Part shown: positions 24,882-40,500 of the stretch, in pieces
Position numbering within the stretch: the stretch's first letter is position 1
Layout of the letters: every line of letters begins with the position of its first letter
Assembly: GCA_027351145.1 (NCBI GenBank)
Contig: DAIEIZ010000007.1
Span: forward strand, 1-41,641
Source: Candidatus Moraniibacteriota bacterium
GTDB taxonomy: Bacteria; Patescibacteriota; Minisyncoccia; Moranbacterales; UBA2206
Length of the DNA: 41,641 nucleotides
Direction: 5' to 3'
Translations under genes and position numbers: made by a program
The notes under the pieces: generated by a model
The model's database searches: none
Told to the model about the DNA's origin: nothing
What the model saw: the letters and a program-made list of their open reading frames with translations, nothing else

Positions 24882-25827
24882 AAATATTTTCTTCTTGAAT
24901 TGTATAATTGCGAATTGAATAAAAACACAAACTTAAACATACGCCGATTGCAATAAGAAGGATAAATAATTTGCCACTATTATCCCGAAGAGCGCTTCCG
25001 ATGCCTGCGTTTGTTATTTGCAATGAATTATTGAGCAGTTGGCTGGAAAAAGAAGTATAGTGCCAACCGAGAGAAAGCGGACCGAGATAGGTTCGCATCA
25101 GCGCAAAAAACGTTCCGTCCGGAGCAACTTGATCCATTGTGACAGGATTAAGGAGGGCTGTCGGGGTTTGCCCGGAAACCAATTCCGGCAAAACAAAACT
25201 AATCCCCACCCAAATACAAACCGGGACAAACAGCGCCAGCGATTCGCTTTTAGTTTTAATGGCAAATAGCAACCCGACGAGTGCAAAAAAAAGCAGATAA
25301 AAAAAAGAAAGGGCATAGAAGAGAAAAAGTCTCTCAATATCACTCGCAACCAAATGCCGAAAAGGCAATAGCAGTGATGAAAAAACGCTTACAATAAAAG
25401 TAGCGCTGATGATGGCGAAAAGAGCCAAAGAAATCCCCAAAACTTTTCCAAAAAACAATTTTTCCGCTAAAATCGGCCGCGTTAAAAGCAATGGCAGAGC
25501 GCCTGATTTGCGCTCTCGAATAAAACTGCGATGGCCGACCACAATCGCCAAGAGCGAACCGATCAGAAAAATATAGACAATCACATTGCGAAAATTCGTG
25601 AGTGCCGGAAGCGCGTTCAAGGGGTTGGCCGGAATATTATCCGTCCCGGCTTGATGGAGAAATTCCACTGAAGCATTATAAATTGAAGTTGTTGTTGTCG
25701 TGGCAACCAAACCGATAAAAGAAGACGCTAGCGTCATTAAAATAAAAATCGCCAAAAGCAAAAAAAATACACGCTCTCGAAAAAGCACTTTAACTTCTTG
25801 AATTGCAATAGTAAAGATAATTGGCAT
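24874..25827 (-). CDS. ABC-2 family transporter permease
   Basis: 317 aa, 6 TM, same architecture as 23898-24881. Directly follows the ATPase gene. Confidence 0.7.
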   Translation of the reverse strand: MPIIFTIAIQEVKVLFRERVFFLLLAIFILMTLASSFIGLVATTTTTSIYNASVEFLHQAGTDNIPANPLNALPALTNFRNVIVYIFLIGSLLAIVVGHRSFIRERKSGALPLLLTRPILAEKLFFGKVLGISLALFAIISATFIVSVFSSLLLPFRHLVASDIERLFLFYALSFFYLLFFALVGLLFAIKTKSESLALFVPVCIWVGISFVLPELVSGQTPTALLNPVTMDQVAPDGTFFALMRTYLGPLSLGWHYTSFSSQLLNNSLQITNAGIGSALRDNSGKLFILLIAIGVCLSLCFYSIRNYTIQEENIYE

Positions 25828-25832
25828 ATTTT

Positions 25833-26567
25833 TTATTCTCCTATGGTAAAATAGATATCCTCCAGGGATTCTTCGTCGGAAAATCTTTTGAGCATATTCT
25901 CCAGTGTTTCTTTATATACAAGCTTTCCGTGATTCAAAACTCCAATTGTTGTGCAGACTTTCGCCACCTCCGAAAGCAGATGCGTATTCATAAAAATGGT
26001 CATTCTTTTTTCCCTGTTCAACTTCAAAATGACTTCCCGCAATTTTTTGATGCCCATCGGATCAAGCCCGGAAGTTGGCTCATCTAAAAACAAAACTTTC
26101 GGTTCATGCATAATCGCTTGAGCAATGCCGATCCGCTGACGCATCCCTTTTGAAAATTCCCCCAGCTTTTTATGCTCAATGCCGGTAAATTCAATAAATT
26201 CCAAAACTTCAGTAACTTTTTCTTTGGAATTTTTAATGCCGGAAAGCTTGGCAAAATATTCCAAATTTTCACTTGCAGTCAGATTATCATAAAATTTCAC
26301 ATTCTCCGGCAAATAGCCAATACTTTTTTTCACTTCCATGCTTCCTTTTACCGTATCGAATCCGCAAATTTCAGCACTGCCGGAAGTTGGCACGAGCAGT
26401 GTTGTGAGAATATTAACTGTGGTGGTTTTCCCCGCACCGTTGTGTCCCAGAAATCCAAAAATCTCCCCTTCCGCAACAGCTAAATTAAGATTGTCCAAAA
26501 CTGCTTTTCCATCATATTTTTTTGTGAGTGATTTGGTTTCAATAATGAAGCGATTATTTTTTTTCAT
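25833..26567 (-). CDS. ABC transporter ATP-binding protein
   Basis: Walker A GHNGAGKTTT, signature-like FSKGMRQR, Walker B VLFLDEPTSGLD. Confidence 0.9.
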   Translation of the reverse strand: MKKNNRFIIETKSLTKKYDGKAVLDNLNLAVAEGEIFGFLGHNGAGKTTTVNILTTLLVPTSGSAEICGFDTVKGSMEVKKSIGYLPENVKFYDNLTASENLEYFAKLSGIKNSKEKVTEVLEFIEFTGIEHKKLGEFSKGMRQRIGIAQAIMHEPKVLFLDEPTSGLDPMGIKKLREVILKLNREKRMTIFMNTHLLSEVAKVCTTIGVLNHGKLVYKETLENMLKRFSDEESLEDIYFTIGE

Positions 26568-36546: not shown

Positions 36547-37251
36547 TTAACGCCTGATGCCCATCTTGCCAAAGTTTTTCAAAATTGCGCTTTGAATCTT
36601 TTCTAAGTCAATCTTTTTGCCTTTTGTTTTCTTTTTTAAGTTCTTATCCAAGATCATATCTTCGCGATATTCTTGTAAATAATAAGCCTTAGCGCCAGAT
36701 AGCCATTTGGCAATTTTCAAAAAGTCTTTTTCCGTGTGGATGCCCGGCACAACCGTAGTACGAAATTCATAGAGCAGACGACTATTTTTGATCAGATCCA
36801 CACTCAGCCTTATTCTTTCAATATCCACTTTCAAGCCTACAGTTTCACTGTAACGTGCGGGTTGATTTTTAATATCCATCGCCACAAAATCCAAAAGTTT
36901 CAGGTCAAGCAACTTTTTTAAAATATCCGGTCGAGCACCGTTAGTATCCAATTTGACCAAATATCCCAATGCCCGCACCTTTTGGATAAACTGAACCAAA
37001 TCCGGCTGTAACGTCGGTTCGCCACCGGTAATACAAACCCCTTCCAATTTTCCTTTCCGTTTTTTTAAAAACTCAAAAAATTCTCGTTCTGTCTTATTTT
37101 CCGTTCCAGAAGCAAGCTGACTAGCACCTAAAACCAATTCCGGATTATGACAAAATGGGCAATGGAAATTACAACCCACTGTGAAAACAGTTGTTGCCAA
37201 GTGCCCGGGAAAATCAATCAGCGTTAATTTTTGGTAACCGCCTATATTCAT
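36547..37251 (-). CDS. nrdG: Anaerobic ribonucleoside-triphosphate reductase activating protein (radical SAM)
   Basis: Contains TVGCNFHCPFCHNPELV (CxxxCxxC) and GVCITGGEPTLQPD. Genomic context with nrdD. Confidence 0.9.
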   Translation of the reverse strand: MNIGGYQKLTLIDFPGHLATTVFTVGCNFHCPFCHNPELVLGASQLASGTENKTEREFFEFLKKRKGKLEGVCITGGEPTLQPDLVQFIQKVRALGYLVKLDTNGARPDILKKLLDLKLLDFVAMDIKNQPARYSETVGLKVDIERIRLSVDLIKNSRLLYEFRTTVVPGIHTEKDFLKIAKWLSGAKAYYLQEYREDMILDKNLKKKTKGKKIDLEKIQSAILKNFGKMGIRR

Positions 37252-37378
37252 ACTAATAATATTATCTGTAATTATAAATTTTTCTCGCTTCTAAAAATAA
37301 ACTTTTCTTTTATGTCCAGGATAAAATTCAGGGCAAAACAGCTCATAGAACCATTTTGCCCCGCTATCTTTCTTGATT

Positions 37379-37642
37379 TTAGCAAACGCAGGTTGCATCA
37401 TTCAGCTTAAACTCCTTGCGATCATCAAATTCGGCTTGTTTGCCACCATTCCATTGAGCGACTGGGCGGATATAGCCCACGACACGGGAATAAACCTCCG
37501 TTCTTTGAAAATTTCTCAGAATCGGATCTGCTTGATGACATTTTTTACATTTGCAAAACTCACCGCTCTCCACCGCATAATTCATATATTCTTCGTTCAT
37601 CTTCAGCTCACGACCACAATCATGACAAACTTGTTTTTTCAT
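37379..37642 (-). CDS. 87-aa zinc-ribbon plus glycyl-radical-loop protein; its C-terminal 32 aa are identical to the NrdD C-terminus
   Basis: MKKQVCHDCGRELK...CKCKKCHQADPILRNFQRTEVYSRVVGYIRPVAQWNGGKQAEFDDRKEFKLNDATCVC. The ORF is intact, with ATG at 37640-37642. The track's TTG at 37687 is less likely. Confidence 0.65.
   Translation of the reverse strand: MKKQVCHDCGRELKMNEEYMNYAVESGEFCKCKKCHQADPILRNFQRTEVYSRVVGYIRPVAQWNGGKQAEFDDRKEFKLNDATCVC
37406..37501. repeat. 96-bp direct repeat, copy A (inside the mini-protein ORF)
   Basis: 95/96 identical to 37726-37821 at an offset of 320 bp. The single mismatch is at 37412/37732. Confidence 0.9.
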
Positions 37643-37704
37643 ATTATTTTTGGTTTCATTGAGAGTAATTTTAATTTCGCCCAACAAAACATTTTTTTAA
37701 TTTT

Positions 37705-39933
37705 TTATATTTTGCTTTTCTCCACCTTAAATTCCTTGCGATCATCAAATTCGGCTTGTTTGCCACCATTCCATTGAGCGACTGGGCGGATATAGCCCAC
37801 GACACGGGAATAAACCTCCGTCTTTTGCTCCATTACGCATTTAGGACAAAAAGGATGCTCACCGTTAATGTAGCCATGCACCGGACAGATACTGAATGTT
37901 GGCGTCAAAGTAAAATAGGGCAAAGCATAATTTTCAGCAATTTTTCTCACCAGCTGTTTGGTTGTTTCAATATCCCAAATTCTTTCTCCTAGAAATCCGT
38001 GCAATACTGTTCCTCCGGTATATTTAGTTTGCAAATTGTCTTGCAAATCCAACGCTTCAAAAATATCCTCGGTGTGATGCACTGGCAGTTGCGATGAATT
38101 GGTATAATATGGCTCGGCATTTTTCTCTTTGACATTCTTGTCATTTGCAAAAATAATTTCCGGATATTTTTTGCAATCAATTCTGGCTAGACGGTAGGAT
38201 GTGCCTTCGGCCGGCGTGGCTTCCAAATTATAGAGGTTGCCGGTTTCTTTTTGATAACCGATAATTCTTTGGCGCATGTGCGAGAGAATCTCTTCGGCCA
38301 ATTTTTGCCCTGCGGGAGTGGTGATGTCTTTTCCGATCAAGTTCACTAGCGCCTCATTCATTCCTACGAGTCCAATAGTCGAGAAATGATTAGCCCAATA
38401 CTGTCCACGGCGCATCTTGATTGGAGCAAGATAGAATTTAGTGTAAGGATAGAGACCGCCTTCGGTTAGTTTTTCCACCATCGTTCTTTTAGTTTCCAAA
38501 CTTTCTCTGGCCAAATCCATGAGATGATTCAATTGTTTCAAAAATTCTTTTTTATTCTTAGCGATATATCCTATGCGAGGCATATTAATCGTCACCACAC
38601 CAATTGAGCCAGTGAGCGGATTAGCCCCAAACAGACCGCCACCGCGCTTGTGAAGCTCCCGATTATCAAGACGCAACCGGCAACACATTGAGCGCGCGTC
38701 ATCCGGATCCATATCAGAATTAACAAAATTGGCAAAATATGGGATGCCATACTTGGCCGTCATTTCCCAAATCGCATCAAAGCGCCTGTCCGTCCAATCA
38801 AAATCTTTGCCAATGTTATAGGTAGGAATCGGAAAAGTAAAAATTCGTCCATTCGCGTCCCCTTCTGTCATCACTTCCGCAAAAGCCCGGTTAATCATAT
38901 TCATCTCTTCTTGAAATTCACCATAAGTTTCTTTCTGAGGAAAACCGCCAAAAATCACAGCCTCGCTTTTCAAGTTCTTAGGGCAAGTGATGTCCATCGT
39001 AATGTTGGAAAAGGGCGTTTGAAATCCTACGCGAGTGGAAACATTCATATTAAACACATAGGACTGAATTTCTTGCTTAACCTGATCGTAGGTCAATTTA
39101 TCATAACGAACAAAAGGAGCAAGCAGTGTATCAAAATTAGAAAAAGCCTGCGCACCCGCTACTTCGCCTTGCGTGGTATAGGTAAAATTTACCATCTGAC
39201 CCAAAATTGAACCCAGATGCTTAGCTGGTTTGCAGGCTACTTTTCCCGGCACACCAGTAAAACCGCGCCTCAAGAGATCTTGCAGATCCCAACCGCAACA
39301 ATAGGCAGCAAGAAGCTGCAAATCATGAATGTGAAAATCACCGCCTTCATGCGCTTGACGAATGGCTTTCGTGTAAACCCGATTCATCCAATACTTGGAA
39401 CTAACAATCGAAGAGATGTAGTTATTGAGCCCTTGAAGAGAATAGGCCATGTTGGCATTTTCCTTCACCTTCCAGTCAATTTCTTGAATATATTTATCCA
39501 CTAAATTCACTGCTTCGTCCAGCGATTCCTGAGCCTCACGATTTTTTCTGTGCTGTTCGCGATAAAGAATATATGCCTTGGCGGTTTCTTCAAAATCCAA
39601 AATCATAAGCACTCTTTCCACAAGATCTTGAATTTCTTCAATTTCCGGAACATAGCCTTTCTTGTGTTTTCGCCCTAAAAGCTTTACTACTTTTTCCGTT
39701 ACTTTTTTGGCATCATCCGCTGAACCTTCCTTGGTTGAGGCAAGCGCTTTGGCAACACCCTTTACGATTTTACTCTCATCAAAGCGGGCAACCACGCCAT
39801 TTCTTTTGATGACTTTTTCGATTCGGGTTTCATCTTTCTGCACTTCTTTTTTCACCGCCTTCTTTACTGCGACTTTTGCAGTTTTTTTATCATTCTGCTT
39901 TTTCACTCCCCCTTTTTTCACTTTTTTTGCCAT
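37705..39933 (-). CDS. nrdD: Anaerobic ribonucleoside-triphosphate reductase (class III RNR) with an N-terminal ATP-cone
   Basis: ATP-cone IEKVIKRNGVVARFDESKI. Core region ..CCRLRLD... C-terminal CPVH..CPKC metal site followed by the glycyl radical motif RVVGY. I prefer ATG at 39931-39933 over GTG at 39966. Confidence 0.9.
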   Translation of the reverse strand: MAKKVKKGGVKKQNDKKTAKVAVKKAVKKEVQKDETRIEKVIKRNGVVARFDESKIVKGVAKALASTKEGSADDAKKVTEKVVKLLGRKHKKGYVPEIEEIQDLVERVLMILDFEETAKAYILYREQHRKNREAQESLDEAVNLVDKYIQEIDWKVKENANMAYSLQGLNNYISSIVSSKYWMNRVYTKAIRQAHEGGDFHIHDLQLLAAYCCGWDLQDLLRRGFTGVPGKVACKPAKHLGSILGQMVNFTYTTQGEVAGAQAFSNFDTLLAPFVRYDKLTYDQVKQEIQSYVFNMNVSTRVGFQTPFSNITMDITCPKNLKSEAVIFGGFPQKETYGEFQEEMNMINRAFAEVMTEGDANGRIFTFPIPTYNIGKDFDWTDRRFDAIWEMTAKYGIPYFANFVNSDMDPDDARSMCCRLRLDNRELHKRGGGLFGANPLTGSIGVVTINMPRIGYIAKNKKEFLKQLNHLMDLARESLETKRTMVEKLTEGGLYPYTKFYLAPIKMRRGQYWANHFSTIGLVGMNEALVNLIGKDITTPAGQKLAEEILSHMRQRIIGYQKETGNLYNLEATPAEGTSYRLARIDCKKYPEIIFANDKNVKEKNAEPYYTNSSQLPVHHTEDIFEALDLQDNLQTKYTGGTVLHGFLGERIWDIETTKQLVRKIAENYALPYFTLTPTFSICPVHGYINGEHPFCPKCVMEQKTEVYSRVVGYIRPVAQWNGGKQAEFDDRKEFKVEKSKI
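37726..37821. repeat. 96-bp direct repeat, copy B (3' end of nrdD)
   Basis: See 37406-37501. Confidence 0.9.
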
Positions 39934-39977: not shown

Positions 39978-40430
39978 TTATTTATCATCAAACGTGTCCA
40001 ACTCCCTTTTAAAACTTTCGATGTTGGCAAATGATTTGTAAACGCTAGCAAATCTAACATAGGCCACCTCATCCAGTTCACGCAGTTTTTTGAGAATAAT
40101 CTTGCCAATTTCCCGCGTACTTATTTCCGGTTTTTCCTTGGTCCGAATCTCATATTCCACTTCTCCGATGAATTGAGTGATCTTCTCTTCCGTCACCGGA
40201 CGTTTTTCCAAGGCTTTTCTCACGCCGGTTTCAATTTTTGATTTGTCATAATCCACTTTGAGACCATTCTTTTTGAGCACGCTTAAACGCAAAAGTTCTA
40301 TTTCCTCATAGGTACTGAAACGCGACTCACATTTCAAGCATTCTCGACGACGACGCGTAATCTTGCCTTCATTGGTTTCTCGCGAATCAACGACCTTGGT
40401 TTCAGTGTTATTGCAAAACGGACAATTCAT
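39978..40430 (-). CDS. nrdR: Transcriptional repressor NrdR (zinc ribbon + ATP-cone)
   Basis: MNCPFCNNTETKVVDSRETNEGKITRRRRECLKCESRFSTYE is a canonical NrdR N-terminus. Confidence 0.9.
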   Translation of the reverse strand: MNCPFCNNTETKVVDSRETNEGKITRRRRECLKCESRFSTYEEIELLRLSVLKKNGLKVDYDKSKIETGVRKALEKRPVTEEKITQFIGEVEYEIRTKEKPEISTREIGKIILKKLRELDEVAYVRFASVYKSFANIESFKRELDTFDDK

Positions 40431-40472: not shown

Positions 40473-40500
40473 ATTATACCACAATCGAAATTCCTGGCAA
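40473..40500 (-). promoter_or_regulatory. Putative promoter of the nrdR-nrdD-X-nrdG operon
   Basis: The minus strand reads TTGCCA (40500-40495), a 16-nt spacer ending in TGG, then TATAAT (40478-40473). This is an extended -10-like context. Confidence 0.5.

Follow-up and report, generated by a model that had tools for sequence, protein, structure and literature searches.

An 87-residue free-standing NrdD C-terminal domain encoded between nrdD and nrdG, a candidate radical module for class III ribonucleotide reductase

The nrd locus and its 87-residue open reading frame

Positions 1 to 41,641 of contig DAIEIZ010000007.1 from a Candidatus Moraniibacteriota bacterium (assembly GCA_027351145.1), a 41.6-kb stretch that we refer to as the window, contain a small gene lodged between nrdD, which encodes the class III (anaerobic) ribonucleotide reductase (RNR), and nrdG, which encodes its radical S-adenosylmethionine (radical-SAM) activating enzyme (Table 1). 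An earlier note on this DNA, made from the letters alone, had described an intact 87-codon open reading frame (ORF) here with its own ATG start and stop codon, and this was confirmed; we call it the mini-gene and its product the mini-protein. The nrdD gene lies upstream, with 62 bp between the end of its coding sequence and the mini-gene start. An alternative in-frame TTG start at 37687, upstream of the ATG, would give a protein of 102 residues; the ATG is preferred because most of the 120 homologues listed are 85-88 residues long and open with M-x-K at the ATG position. The nrdR-nrdD-mini-nrdG order was found again in relatives, and nrdG adjoins the mini-gene here and at most relatives' loci. 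The nrdG product is the presumed activase for both glycyl radical loops, that of NrdD and that of the mini-protein.

Table 1. Features of the nrd locus, in window coordinates
Feature	Position	Strand	Evidence or remark
nrdR, transcriptional repressor, cluster head	39978..40430	minus	Pfam Zn_ribbon_NrdR and ATP-cone
nrdD, class III ribonucleotide reductase, full-length	37705..39933	minus	ATP-cone, catalytic core, zinc ribbon CPVH..CPKC, Gly loop
Mini-gene, 87-residue detached NrdD C-terminal domain (zinc ribbon, glycyl-radical loop, Cys tail)	37379..37642	minus	intact ORF
nrdG, radical-SAM activating enzyme	36547..37251	minus	TIGR02495 NrdG2, 210 bits (cut-off 131); Pfam Radical_SAM, Fer4_12
Zinc-ribbon part of the mini-protein, C6, C9 ... 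C32, C35	37538..37627	minus	alignment and AlphaFold2 model
Gly56 codon, predicted radical glycine, motif RVVGY	37475..37477	minus	invariance, alignment and model
Cys-x-Cys C-terminal tail of the mini-protein, C85 and C87	37382..37390	minus	tail Cys count in family
Loop-coding repeat copy in the mini-gene	37403..37507	minus	105 nt, 96% to 37723-37827
Repeat copy in the nrdD 3' end	37723..37827	minus	NrdD residues about 703-737, radical Gly713 at 37795-37797
Terminator-like hairpin, mini-gene/nrdG interval	37319..37363	minus	16 pairs, then T-rich tail; consensus scan only
Promoter-like site upstream of nrdR	40473..40500	minus	TTGCCA, 16 nt, TG-TATAAT; 11/12 matches; consensus scan only

The mini-protein is the complete C-terminal domain of NrdD, zinc ribbon and RVVGY loop, encoded as a separate gene. 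Its residues 4-78 match positions 509-562 of the 562 in Pfam NRDD (PF13597; E=1.3e-12, 47.6 bits, cut-off 26.2) and it matches positions 528-580 of the 581 in TIGR02487 (E=4e-10), below the whole-protein cut-off, as expected of a fragment. Because the Pfam NRDD match spans the zinc ribbon too, the ribbon is NrdD-type like the loop, and not an unrelated one onto which the loop was grafted. The catalytic ten-stranded barrel with its thiyl-radical cysteine is absent from the 87 residues, which hold nothing N-terminal to the zinc ribbon, and neither Pfam Gly_radical (PF01228) nor any GrcA model matched the mini-protein at E<=1 in the Pfam and NCBIfam scans. The resident NrdD is full-length at 742 residues (Pfam NRDD E=2.4e-196, 654 bits, together with an ATP-cone; NCBIfam NF006126, 1077 bits) and aligns with the solved NrdD structures 8p23, 4coi and 4u3e.

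Residues C6, H7, D8, C9, K31, C32 and C35 of the mini-protein are invariant in the sets of 32 and 119 aligned family members, as are S52, R53, V55, G56 and Y57 of the loop. C6, C9, C32 and C35 (CHDC...KCKxC) thus form a candidate four-ligand metal site preceding the loop. The Cys-rich sites that the earlier note had named hold for NrdD (CPVH...CPKC) and nearly so for the mini-protein (CHDC..CKCKKC), where C30 of CKCKKC is not conserved. We built an AlphaFold2 model of the mini-protein on 119 sequences (mean predicted local distance difference test score, pLDDT, 78), in which block-mean pLDDT over residues 1-50 is 83-92 and strands 19-24 and 27-32 lie in the zinc-ribbon region; strands 49-52 and 57-60 flank residues 53-56, with G56 at the hairpin turn, and residues 61-71 form a helix. 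Searched against Protein Data Bank (PDB) chains, the mini-protein sequence hit no NrdD and gave only chance matches to TnpB zinc fingers (E=0.3); the link to solved structures therefore runs through the window NrdD, the loop common to both proteins aligning with the RxxGY loops of 8p23 (Prevotella copri) and 4coi (Thermotoga maritima). At the C-terminus, at least two cysteines occur within the last 12 residues in 99 of the 119 family members (as CC, CxC or CxxC), and the tail of the window NrdD, VEKSKI, has none. The cysteine tail of the mini-protein may serve as a redox shuttle or provide an additional metal ligand.

Consensus matches to promoters and terminators in the region are no commoner than in shuffled sequence, and the consensus scan found no minus-strand promoter-like site comparable to that of nrdR just ahead of the mini-gene; co-transcription with nrdD therefore fits, if loosely. 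A tRNA scan and an Rfam scan at the gathering threshold gave no matches in the window (1-41641), the long ORFs of which are nearly all on the minus strand.

Loop homogenisation and conservation of the mini-gene

We recomputed the similarity between the mini-gene and the 3' end of nrdD that the earlier note had reported. Positions 37406-37501 match 37726-37821 at 95/96 nt with a spacing of 320 bp, and the sole difference is synonymous, GAG in the mini-gene and GAA in nrdD both encoding Glu. The second-best repeat in the surrounding 3.7 kb spans just 27 nt at 70% identity, and the 96-nt loop repeat is far beyond chance. At the protein level, residues 48-79 of the mini-protein equal NrdD residues 705-736 at 32/32 positions (TEVYSRVVGYIRPVAQWNGGKQAEFDDRKEFK). 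This segment had been taken for the very C-terminus of NrdD; the 32-residue identity stands, but NrdD runs on for six further residues (VEKSKI). Outside the loop segment there is no DNA similarity between mini-gene and nrdD, the N-terminal half included, in agreement with what had been noted of the flanks.

To place this identity in context, the loop-coding segments (96-102 nt) of mini-gene and nrdD were compared within each of 15 genomes. The identity is low in some (70-73%; L002, L004-L006, L013) and high in others (91-99%; L017, L020, L009 and the window). In nine genomes, the window among them, the nearest neighbour of each loop is the paralogue from its own genome, and in the others it is the orthologue. 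In L001, the closest relative, the two loops are 81% identical and share 17/30 codons; because they are only 81% identical, homogenisation of the window loops is younger than the split from L001. These patterns point to recurrent, episodic gene conversion between loop segments 320 bp apart and to a clean small case of concerted evolution, in which a gene and a domain split off from it evolve together. The independent assembly L159 (GCA_021833485.1) differs from the window at a single position in 3037 aligned nt (about 1804 in L159, 37732 in the window), where its nrdD copy reads GAG like the mini-gene, making the two repeat copies 96/96 identical; this is either a conversion polymorphism or a mis-assignment of reads between the repeats. 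Recombination between the repeat copies was considered as a source of relatives without a mini-gene; it would give NrdD the tail of the mini-protein, and it is not supported, the tails of L035, L038 and L073 looking NrdD-type.

Gene conversion or a very recent partial duplication grafted onto a different zinc ribbon had been offered as the origin of the ORF. Conversion of the loop is borne out by the comparison, and the recent duplication and the graft are not. The mini-protein is instead an old, widespread paralogue of the whole NrdD C-terminal domain, of which only the loop is homogenised from time to time by gene conversion, most lately, and recently, in this genome's own case.

A search of 5.8 billion proteins returned 581 relatives of the mini-protein, the best 120 of which are all 80-113 residues long and come mostly from metagenome-assembled genomes of Moranbacteria, Parcubacteria and Pacebacteria. 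Named entries among these 120 are mostly called 'anaerobic ribonucleoside-triphosphate reductase', a misleading name, because the mini-protein has no part of the enzyme that precedes the zinc ribbon. When 1.84 billion cluster representatives (50% identity) were searched with a profile, 509 matches were obtained at E<=1e-10, the best 150 all 42-159 residues in length. The family ranges over candidate-phyla-radiation (CPR) bacteria, Desulfobacterales, some archaea and predicted viruses, and four subtypes could be told apart by inspection: the type of about 87 residues found in the window, a CPR type of 95-105 residues with an insert in the ribbon, a type of 110-135 residues with an N-terminal extension (Desulfobacterales and others), and loop-only ORFs of 45-65 residues.

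A near-perfect 96-nt repeat at 320 bp is a feature that mis-assembly can create, and the public contig L160 breaks inside it, from which one might argue that the mini-gene is a non-functional by-product, created either in assembly or by a partial duplication of the nrdD 3' end that is now decaying. However, the same structure is present in three assemblies, with an identical mini-protein on five contigs from them, and relatives carry the mini-gene at the same place in diverged DNA. The earlier note had named absence or decay of the ORF in relatives as grounds for doubting it; intact frames occupy the position between nrdD and nrdG in dozens of species. Measured against the closest orthologue, that of L001 (90% identical), the ratio of non-synonymous to synonymous substitution rates (dN/dS), with synonymous sites near saturation, is 0.06 for the N-terminal ribbon half, the half without DNA similarity to nrdD, and 0.01 for the loop. 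The dN/dS values and the breadth of the family rule out a recent duplicate or decaying pseudogene. The mini-gene belongs to a conserved family and is under strong purifying selection, and assembly artefact and decay are both excluded.

Loop-less reductases, orphan mini-genes and viral copies

Loci fetched with the mini-protein show three arrangements: an nrdD with its own loop followed by the mini-gene and nrdG, as in the window; an nrdD ending just past the zinc ribbon without RVVGY, again followed by the mini-gene and nrdG; and an nrdD cut short in much the same way, after which comes a micro-ORF that codes for the loop alone. Since loci fetched with the loop peptide would make a finding that none lacks both loops circular, we picked the loci for a census by NrdD core motifs (VKEN[AS]NM[AS] and YCCGWDLQ), which gave 76 evaluable species-level genomes. 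NrdD has its own loop without a mini-gene in 37/76 species and its own loop together with a mini-gene, the window arrangement, in 19/76. The other 20 species have an NrdD without its own loop, and a neighbouring mini-gene is present in 20/20, counting L204, where the contig stops within the N-terminal half of the mini-gene; species with neither a cis loop nor a mini-gene number 0/76. On the initial scoring (19 with own loop and mini-gene, 37 with own loop alone, 19 truncated with mini-gene and 1 truncated without), which preceded recognition of the cut mini-gene of L204, Fisher's test gave P = 2.5e-6; it ignores shared ancestry, as does the census itself.

The truncated NrdDs share hundreds of invariant columns with full-length NrdDs, the CC-R-L motif and the ligands of the zinc ribbon among them, and are by this conservation probably intact enzymes, not pseudogenes. 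They fall into at least three separate lineages in the tree of the first scan, with further cases from the census. The NrdD of L164 is 93% identical to that of the window and has lost about 130 nt coding for the loop, and that of L232 ends two residues short of the radical glycine. Truncated tails reach 6-29 residues past CPxC, and in the window NrdD 13 residues lie between CPxC and the radical glycine; because the tail lengths bracket the cleavage point, these natural truncations resemble the product of O2 cleavage at the glycine. Should the loop-less enzyme work, its radical must come in trans from the mini-protein, on which the only loop sits, and the census is in this sense indirect evidence that the mini-protein may complement a loop-less core, which is just what a spare part would have to do.

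Degenerate loop relics persist in some truncated tails, e.g., TEVFLKVGEE and STVYLKVVMAD. In one loop-less clade (L180, L181, L187, L179 and L183), a relic x-E-[VF]-[FY]-[LM]-x-[VA]-G-[ED]-[ED] is kept after the ribbon, and its strand may still pair with a strand of the mini-protein, by analogy with pyruvate formate-lyase (PFL), where the strand retained after O2 cleavage pairs with the spare-part protein YfiD (PMC13450708). The truncated NrdDs of L021, L179, L183 and L187 end in CC or CCK. A second two-piece kind was also observed, in which NrdD ends after a conserved CPxCDxExGY tail and a loop-only ORF of 45-86 residues without zinc ribbon precedes nrdG (L048:5983-6123, L078:5971-6108, L044:2967-3167 and L133:4863-5123, in genomes labelled Saccharibacteria, Dojkabacteria and Micrarchaeota). 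Several NrdD ORFs are oversized (L072, 1663 residues; L043, 1192; L078, 1007; L145, 1051; L155, 1045; also L074 and L054), the 300-900 extra residues being likely inteins or other insertions. In L011:3779-5960, on the contig of L201 (Moranbacteria), nrdD is present as two ORFs, an ATP-cone region of 154 residues and a second of 560, which a frameshift, a sequencing error or a detached ATP-cone would each explain.

The census could also be read to mean that the mini-protein is a constitutive subunit, such that the working enzyme would always consist of NrdD core plus mini-protein and the cis loop of the window would be a leftover in the course of being lost. The location of the mini-gene inside the nrdR-nrdD-mini-nrdG cluster, with no separate minus-strand promoter-like site found, is loosely in line with this. 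Also in its favour are the loss of the cis loop in 20/76 species of several lineages, down to a relative as close as L164, and the lack of any census species without both loops. In contrast, the cis loop of the window is intact and identical to that of the mini-protein, cis loops are kept in the 19 mini-bearing species and refreshed by gene conversion, and 37 related species manage with the cis loop alone; orphan relatives in oxidative-stress clusters, described next, point to conditional use. We consider a purely constitutive subunit unlikely, though it is the foremost of the alternatives.

Mini-genes without nrdD or nrdG within 5-6 kb were found at 16 loci in the first scan and at 10 more in the second. 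Among the CPR-type orphans, the immediate same-strand neighbour upstream is a Fur-family regulator (L023, L024, L039, L040) or an Rrf2 regulator (L037), and downstream lie rubrerythrin (L028, L037, L039, L086), then desulfoferrodoxin (L028, L039), or hemerythrin (L036). Eight orphan loci in all adjoin Fur, Rrf2, rubrerythrin, desulfoferrodoxin or hemerythrin genes, representatives of these neighbours having been confirmed by Pfam and the rest assigned via BLASTP clustering. Such a set is typical of the peroxide and superoxide response of anaerobes. In L039:5579-7216, a Fur-family regulator, the mini-gene, rubrerythrin and desulfoferrodoxin form one cluster. Within the window itself no link to oxygen or oxidative stress was seen, and the neighbours of Desulfobacterales-type orphans (AsmA, LEA_2, S1 protein, methyltransferase, MltC, MlaA, fumarase and transglutaminase) offered no interpretable link. 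In one assembly from the Desulfobacteraceae, an orphan mini-gene (L099) coexists with a full NrdD that carries a loop of its own (L065).

Viruses carry related genes as well. The archaeal virus ANMV-1 (KP703175.1, 38 kb) has an 'nrdD' at 25525-25959 (L238:3863-4297) that encodes 144 residues, or 115 from an internal Met. To judge from its sequence, this 'anaerobic ribonucleoside triphosphate reductase' is a mini-protein consisting of a free-standing zinc ribbon and Gly loop, and not a reductase; the gene had served to argue for an anaerobic host (PMC4372165). In a scan of predicted viral contigs from IMG/VR (L240-L319), 55/80 best loci contain free-standing mini-type ORFs of about 45-155 residues with no NrdD within 5 kb, which suggests that virus-borne NrdD-type radical modules are common, in parallel to Y06I of bacteriophage T4 for PFL. 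The viral mini-proteins belong to other subfamilies than the window protein.

The loop of the mini-protein exactly mimics the NrdG substrate and some relatives adjoin Fur or Rrf2 regulators, as would be expected if the mini-protein were a regulator or decoy that rivals NrdD in binding NrdG or in occupying the loop pocket and so buffers or senses radical load or oxygen. We regard this as improbable, since in 20 species the sole glycyl-radical loop is on the mini-protein beside a conserved catalytic core, and a pure inhibitor would leave these enzymes dead. The C-terminal tails of class I and class II RNRs act as electron shuttles. By likeness to these, the cysteine pair of the mini-protein might shuttle electrons, or the protein might donate its radical to a different enzyme; the tail cysteines of 99/119 family members, the CC ends of the truncated NrdDs of L021, L179, L183 and L187, a Cys-rich zinc finger known to mediate turnover in class II RNR (PMC5704485) and the many orphan and virus-borne copies away from nrdD would agree with such another role or partner. 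However, whole sub-clades have no Cys tail (L008, L013, L017, L019, L020, L033 and the Desulfobacterales type), whereas the Gly loop is invariant and co-evolves with the loop of the resident NrdD. Such a role or partner is, if anything, even less probable than a decoy, and it could add to a radical-supplying function instead of replacing it.

A candidate trans-acting radical module and its known counterparts

The mini-protein most likely supplies the NrdD radical from a separate protein, judging from its domain content and the distribution of its gene. More specifically, we lean towards the interpretation that it is a trans-acting radical module of class III RNR with a back-up role in this genome. 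NrdG with S-adenosylmethionine would put the radical on Gly56, and the radical-bearing mini-protein would dock its loop in the NrdD barrel, where the glycyl radical would give rise to the catalytic thiyl radical. Because the window NrdD keeps its own identical loop, the mini-protein would be redundant as long as the enzyme is intact. O2 cleavage at the radical glycine is established for Escherichia coli NrdD and PFL. For NrdD it is also stated in the literature (PMC12288474); the core that remains after such cleavage of activated NrdD would resemble the naturally truncated NrdDs of relatives, and fresh mini-protein could restore it without the 742-residue enzyme being remade. Gene conversion may keep the two loops matched to a common pocket and a common activase.

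The earlier note had proposed a stand-in radical module after the fashion of GrcA, which is borne out in part. Purifying selection, the 20/76 truncated NrdDs that all have a mini-gene and the orphans in oxidative-stress clusters support the stand-in module; its sequence does not place it in the GrcA family. Repair need not be its only role: many relatives have no other radical carrier, and the mini-protein may be a regular subunit there.

Several points weigh against a back-up radical module. The mini-gene appears to be co-transcribed with nrdD under NrdR, with no evident oxygen-responsive control, and such co-transcription suits a constitutive partner as well as it does a spare part. The orphans in oxidative-stress clusters form a sister subfamily (about 45-55% identical) and not the nrdD-linked type, and their neighbourhoods therefore back a spare part by extension only. 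A truncated NrdD core, as its sequence indicates, retains its own zinc ribbon, to which the mini-protein would bring a second. Gene conversion could merely follow from proximity, without selection, and shared ancestry lies beneath the census counts and their Fisher P. Finally, a Foldseek search with the mini-protein model against the PDB gave weak generic zinc-ribbon matches (best E=0.08) and no NrdD, a search that is uninformative because the domain is so small.

Beyond this genome, it is tempting to speculate that class III RNR has a widespread and so far undescribed two-component form, whose glycyl radical, labile in oxygen, is borne by an exchangeable 'radical cartridge', small and cheap, obligatory in many CPR bacteria, a back-up here, under oxidative-stress regulators elsewhere and virus-borne in other cases; we put this forward tentatively, as slightly more doubtful than not. 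Spare-part repair would then be a general strategy of glycyl radical enzymes and not a peculiarity of PFL, and viruses would carry the module to sustain the deoxynucleoside triphosphate synthesis of their hosts. Trans supply of a radical from a separate protein has so far been shown for one other enzyme only, PFL. Spare-part proteins are validated for that enzyme alone, and whether other glycyl radical enzymes have them is an open question (PMC8683613; PMC13450708, 2026), in agreement with the earlier note, which knew of no equivalent for class III RNR; nor did the literature covered, which leaves out most subscription-journal papers, yield any account of an autonomous radical protein of the NrdD type or of an NrdD that is split in nature. 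The mini-protein is thus a concrete spare-part candidate for anaerobic RNR, the maker of DNA precursors in strict anaerobes, and one of which natural two-piece versions exist. If the interpretation is correct, it would explain how anaerobes with small genomes, CPR bacteria for instance, survive brief exposure to oxygen without remaking a 740-residue enzyme, would correct many database entries that name proteins of 45-150 residues 'ribonucleotide reductase', that of ANMV-1 among them, and would add a new class of virus-borne auxiliary genes.

The closest known counterpart is GrcA/YfiD, the PFL spare part of E. coli, which is likewise a small free-standing glycyl-radical domain of a large enzyme with a loop near-identical to that of its parent, is presumably activated by the parent's activase and replaces the part lost on O2 cleavage at the radical glycine (PMC8683613, PMC13450708). 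Unlike GrcA, the mini-protein has NrdD and not PFL as its parent, shows no PF01228/GrcA sequence membership, has a zinc ribbon where the GrcA N-terminus is disordered, is encoded within its parent's gene cluster and has a function read from sequence alone. The parent's loop, moreover, has been lost in many species, which would make the mini-protein obligatory there; we know of no case of PFL having lost its own loop to GrcA. Y06I (vs.6) of bacteriophage T4 is comparable to the mini-proteins of ANMV-1 and IMG/VR as a self-standing glycyl-radical module that serves an enzyme of the host but is encoded by the virus; Y06I is PFL-type, whereas the viral proteins described here, known from their sequences, are NrdD-type.

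The Cys-rich zinc-finger C-terminal domain of class II RNR (PMC5704485) resembles the mini-protein in combining a zinc-binding mini-domain with a terminal Cys pair, but it delivers electrons and has no radical glycine, and its relation to the Cys tail of the mini-protein is only a lead. The C-terminal domains of full-length NrdDs (T4, 1h7a; T. maritima, 4coi/4u3e; P. copri, 8p23) are homologous to the mini-protein along its entire length and have the same four-ligand zinc ribbon followed by an RxxGY loop. In contrast to these, the mini-protein is a polypeptide in its own right, with start and stop codons of its own and a Cys-containing tail that the resident NrdD lacks, and its CxxC...CxxC ribbon is more canonical than the CPVH...CPKC of the resident NrdD. 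RNR genes in pieces have a precedent in NrdA of Aeromonas phage Aeh1, reportedly described by Friedrich and colleagues in 2007 as split by a homing-endonuclease gene. The reductase of the 20 species with truncated NrdD is similarly encoded as two pieces needing reassembly, but no mobile element separates the two, and the zinc ribbon of the small piece duplicates one still present in the large piece. The window NrdD is complete and has a loop of its own; the split two-gene form of the enzyme is found in these 20 relatives.

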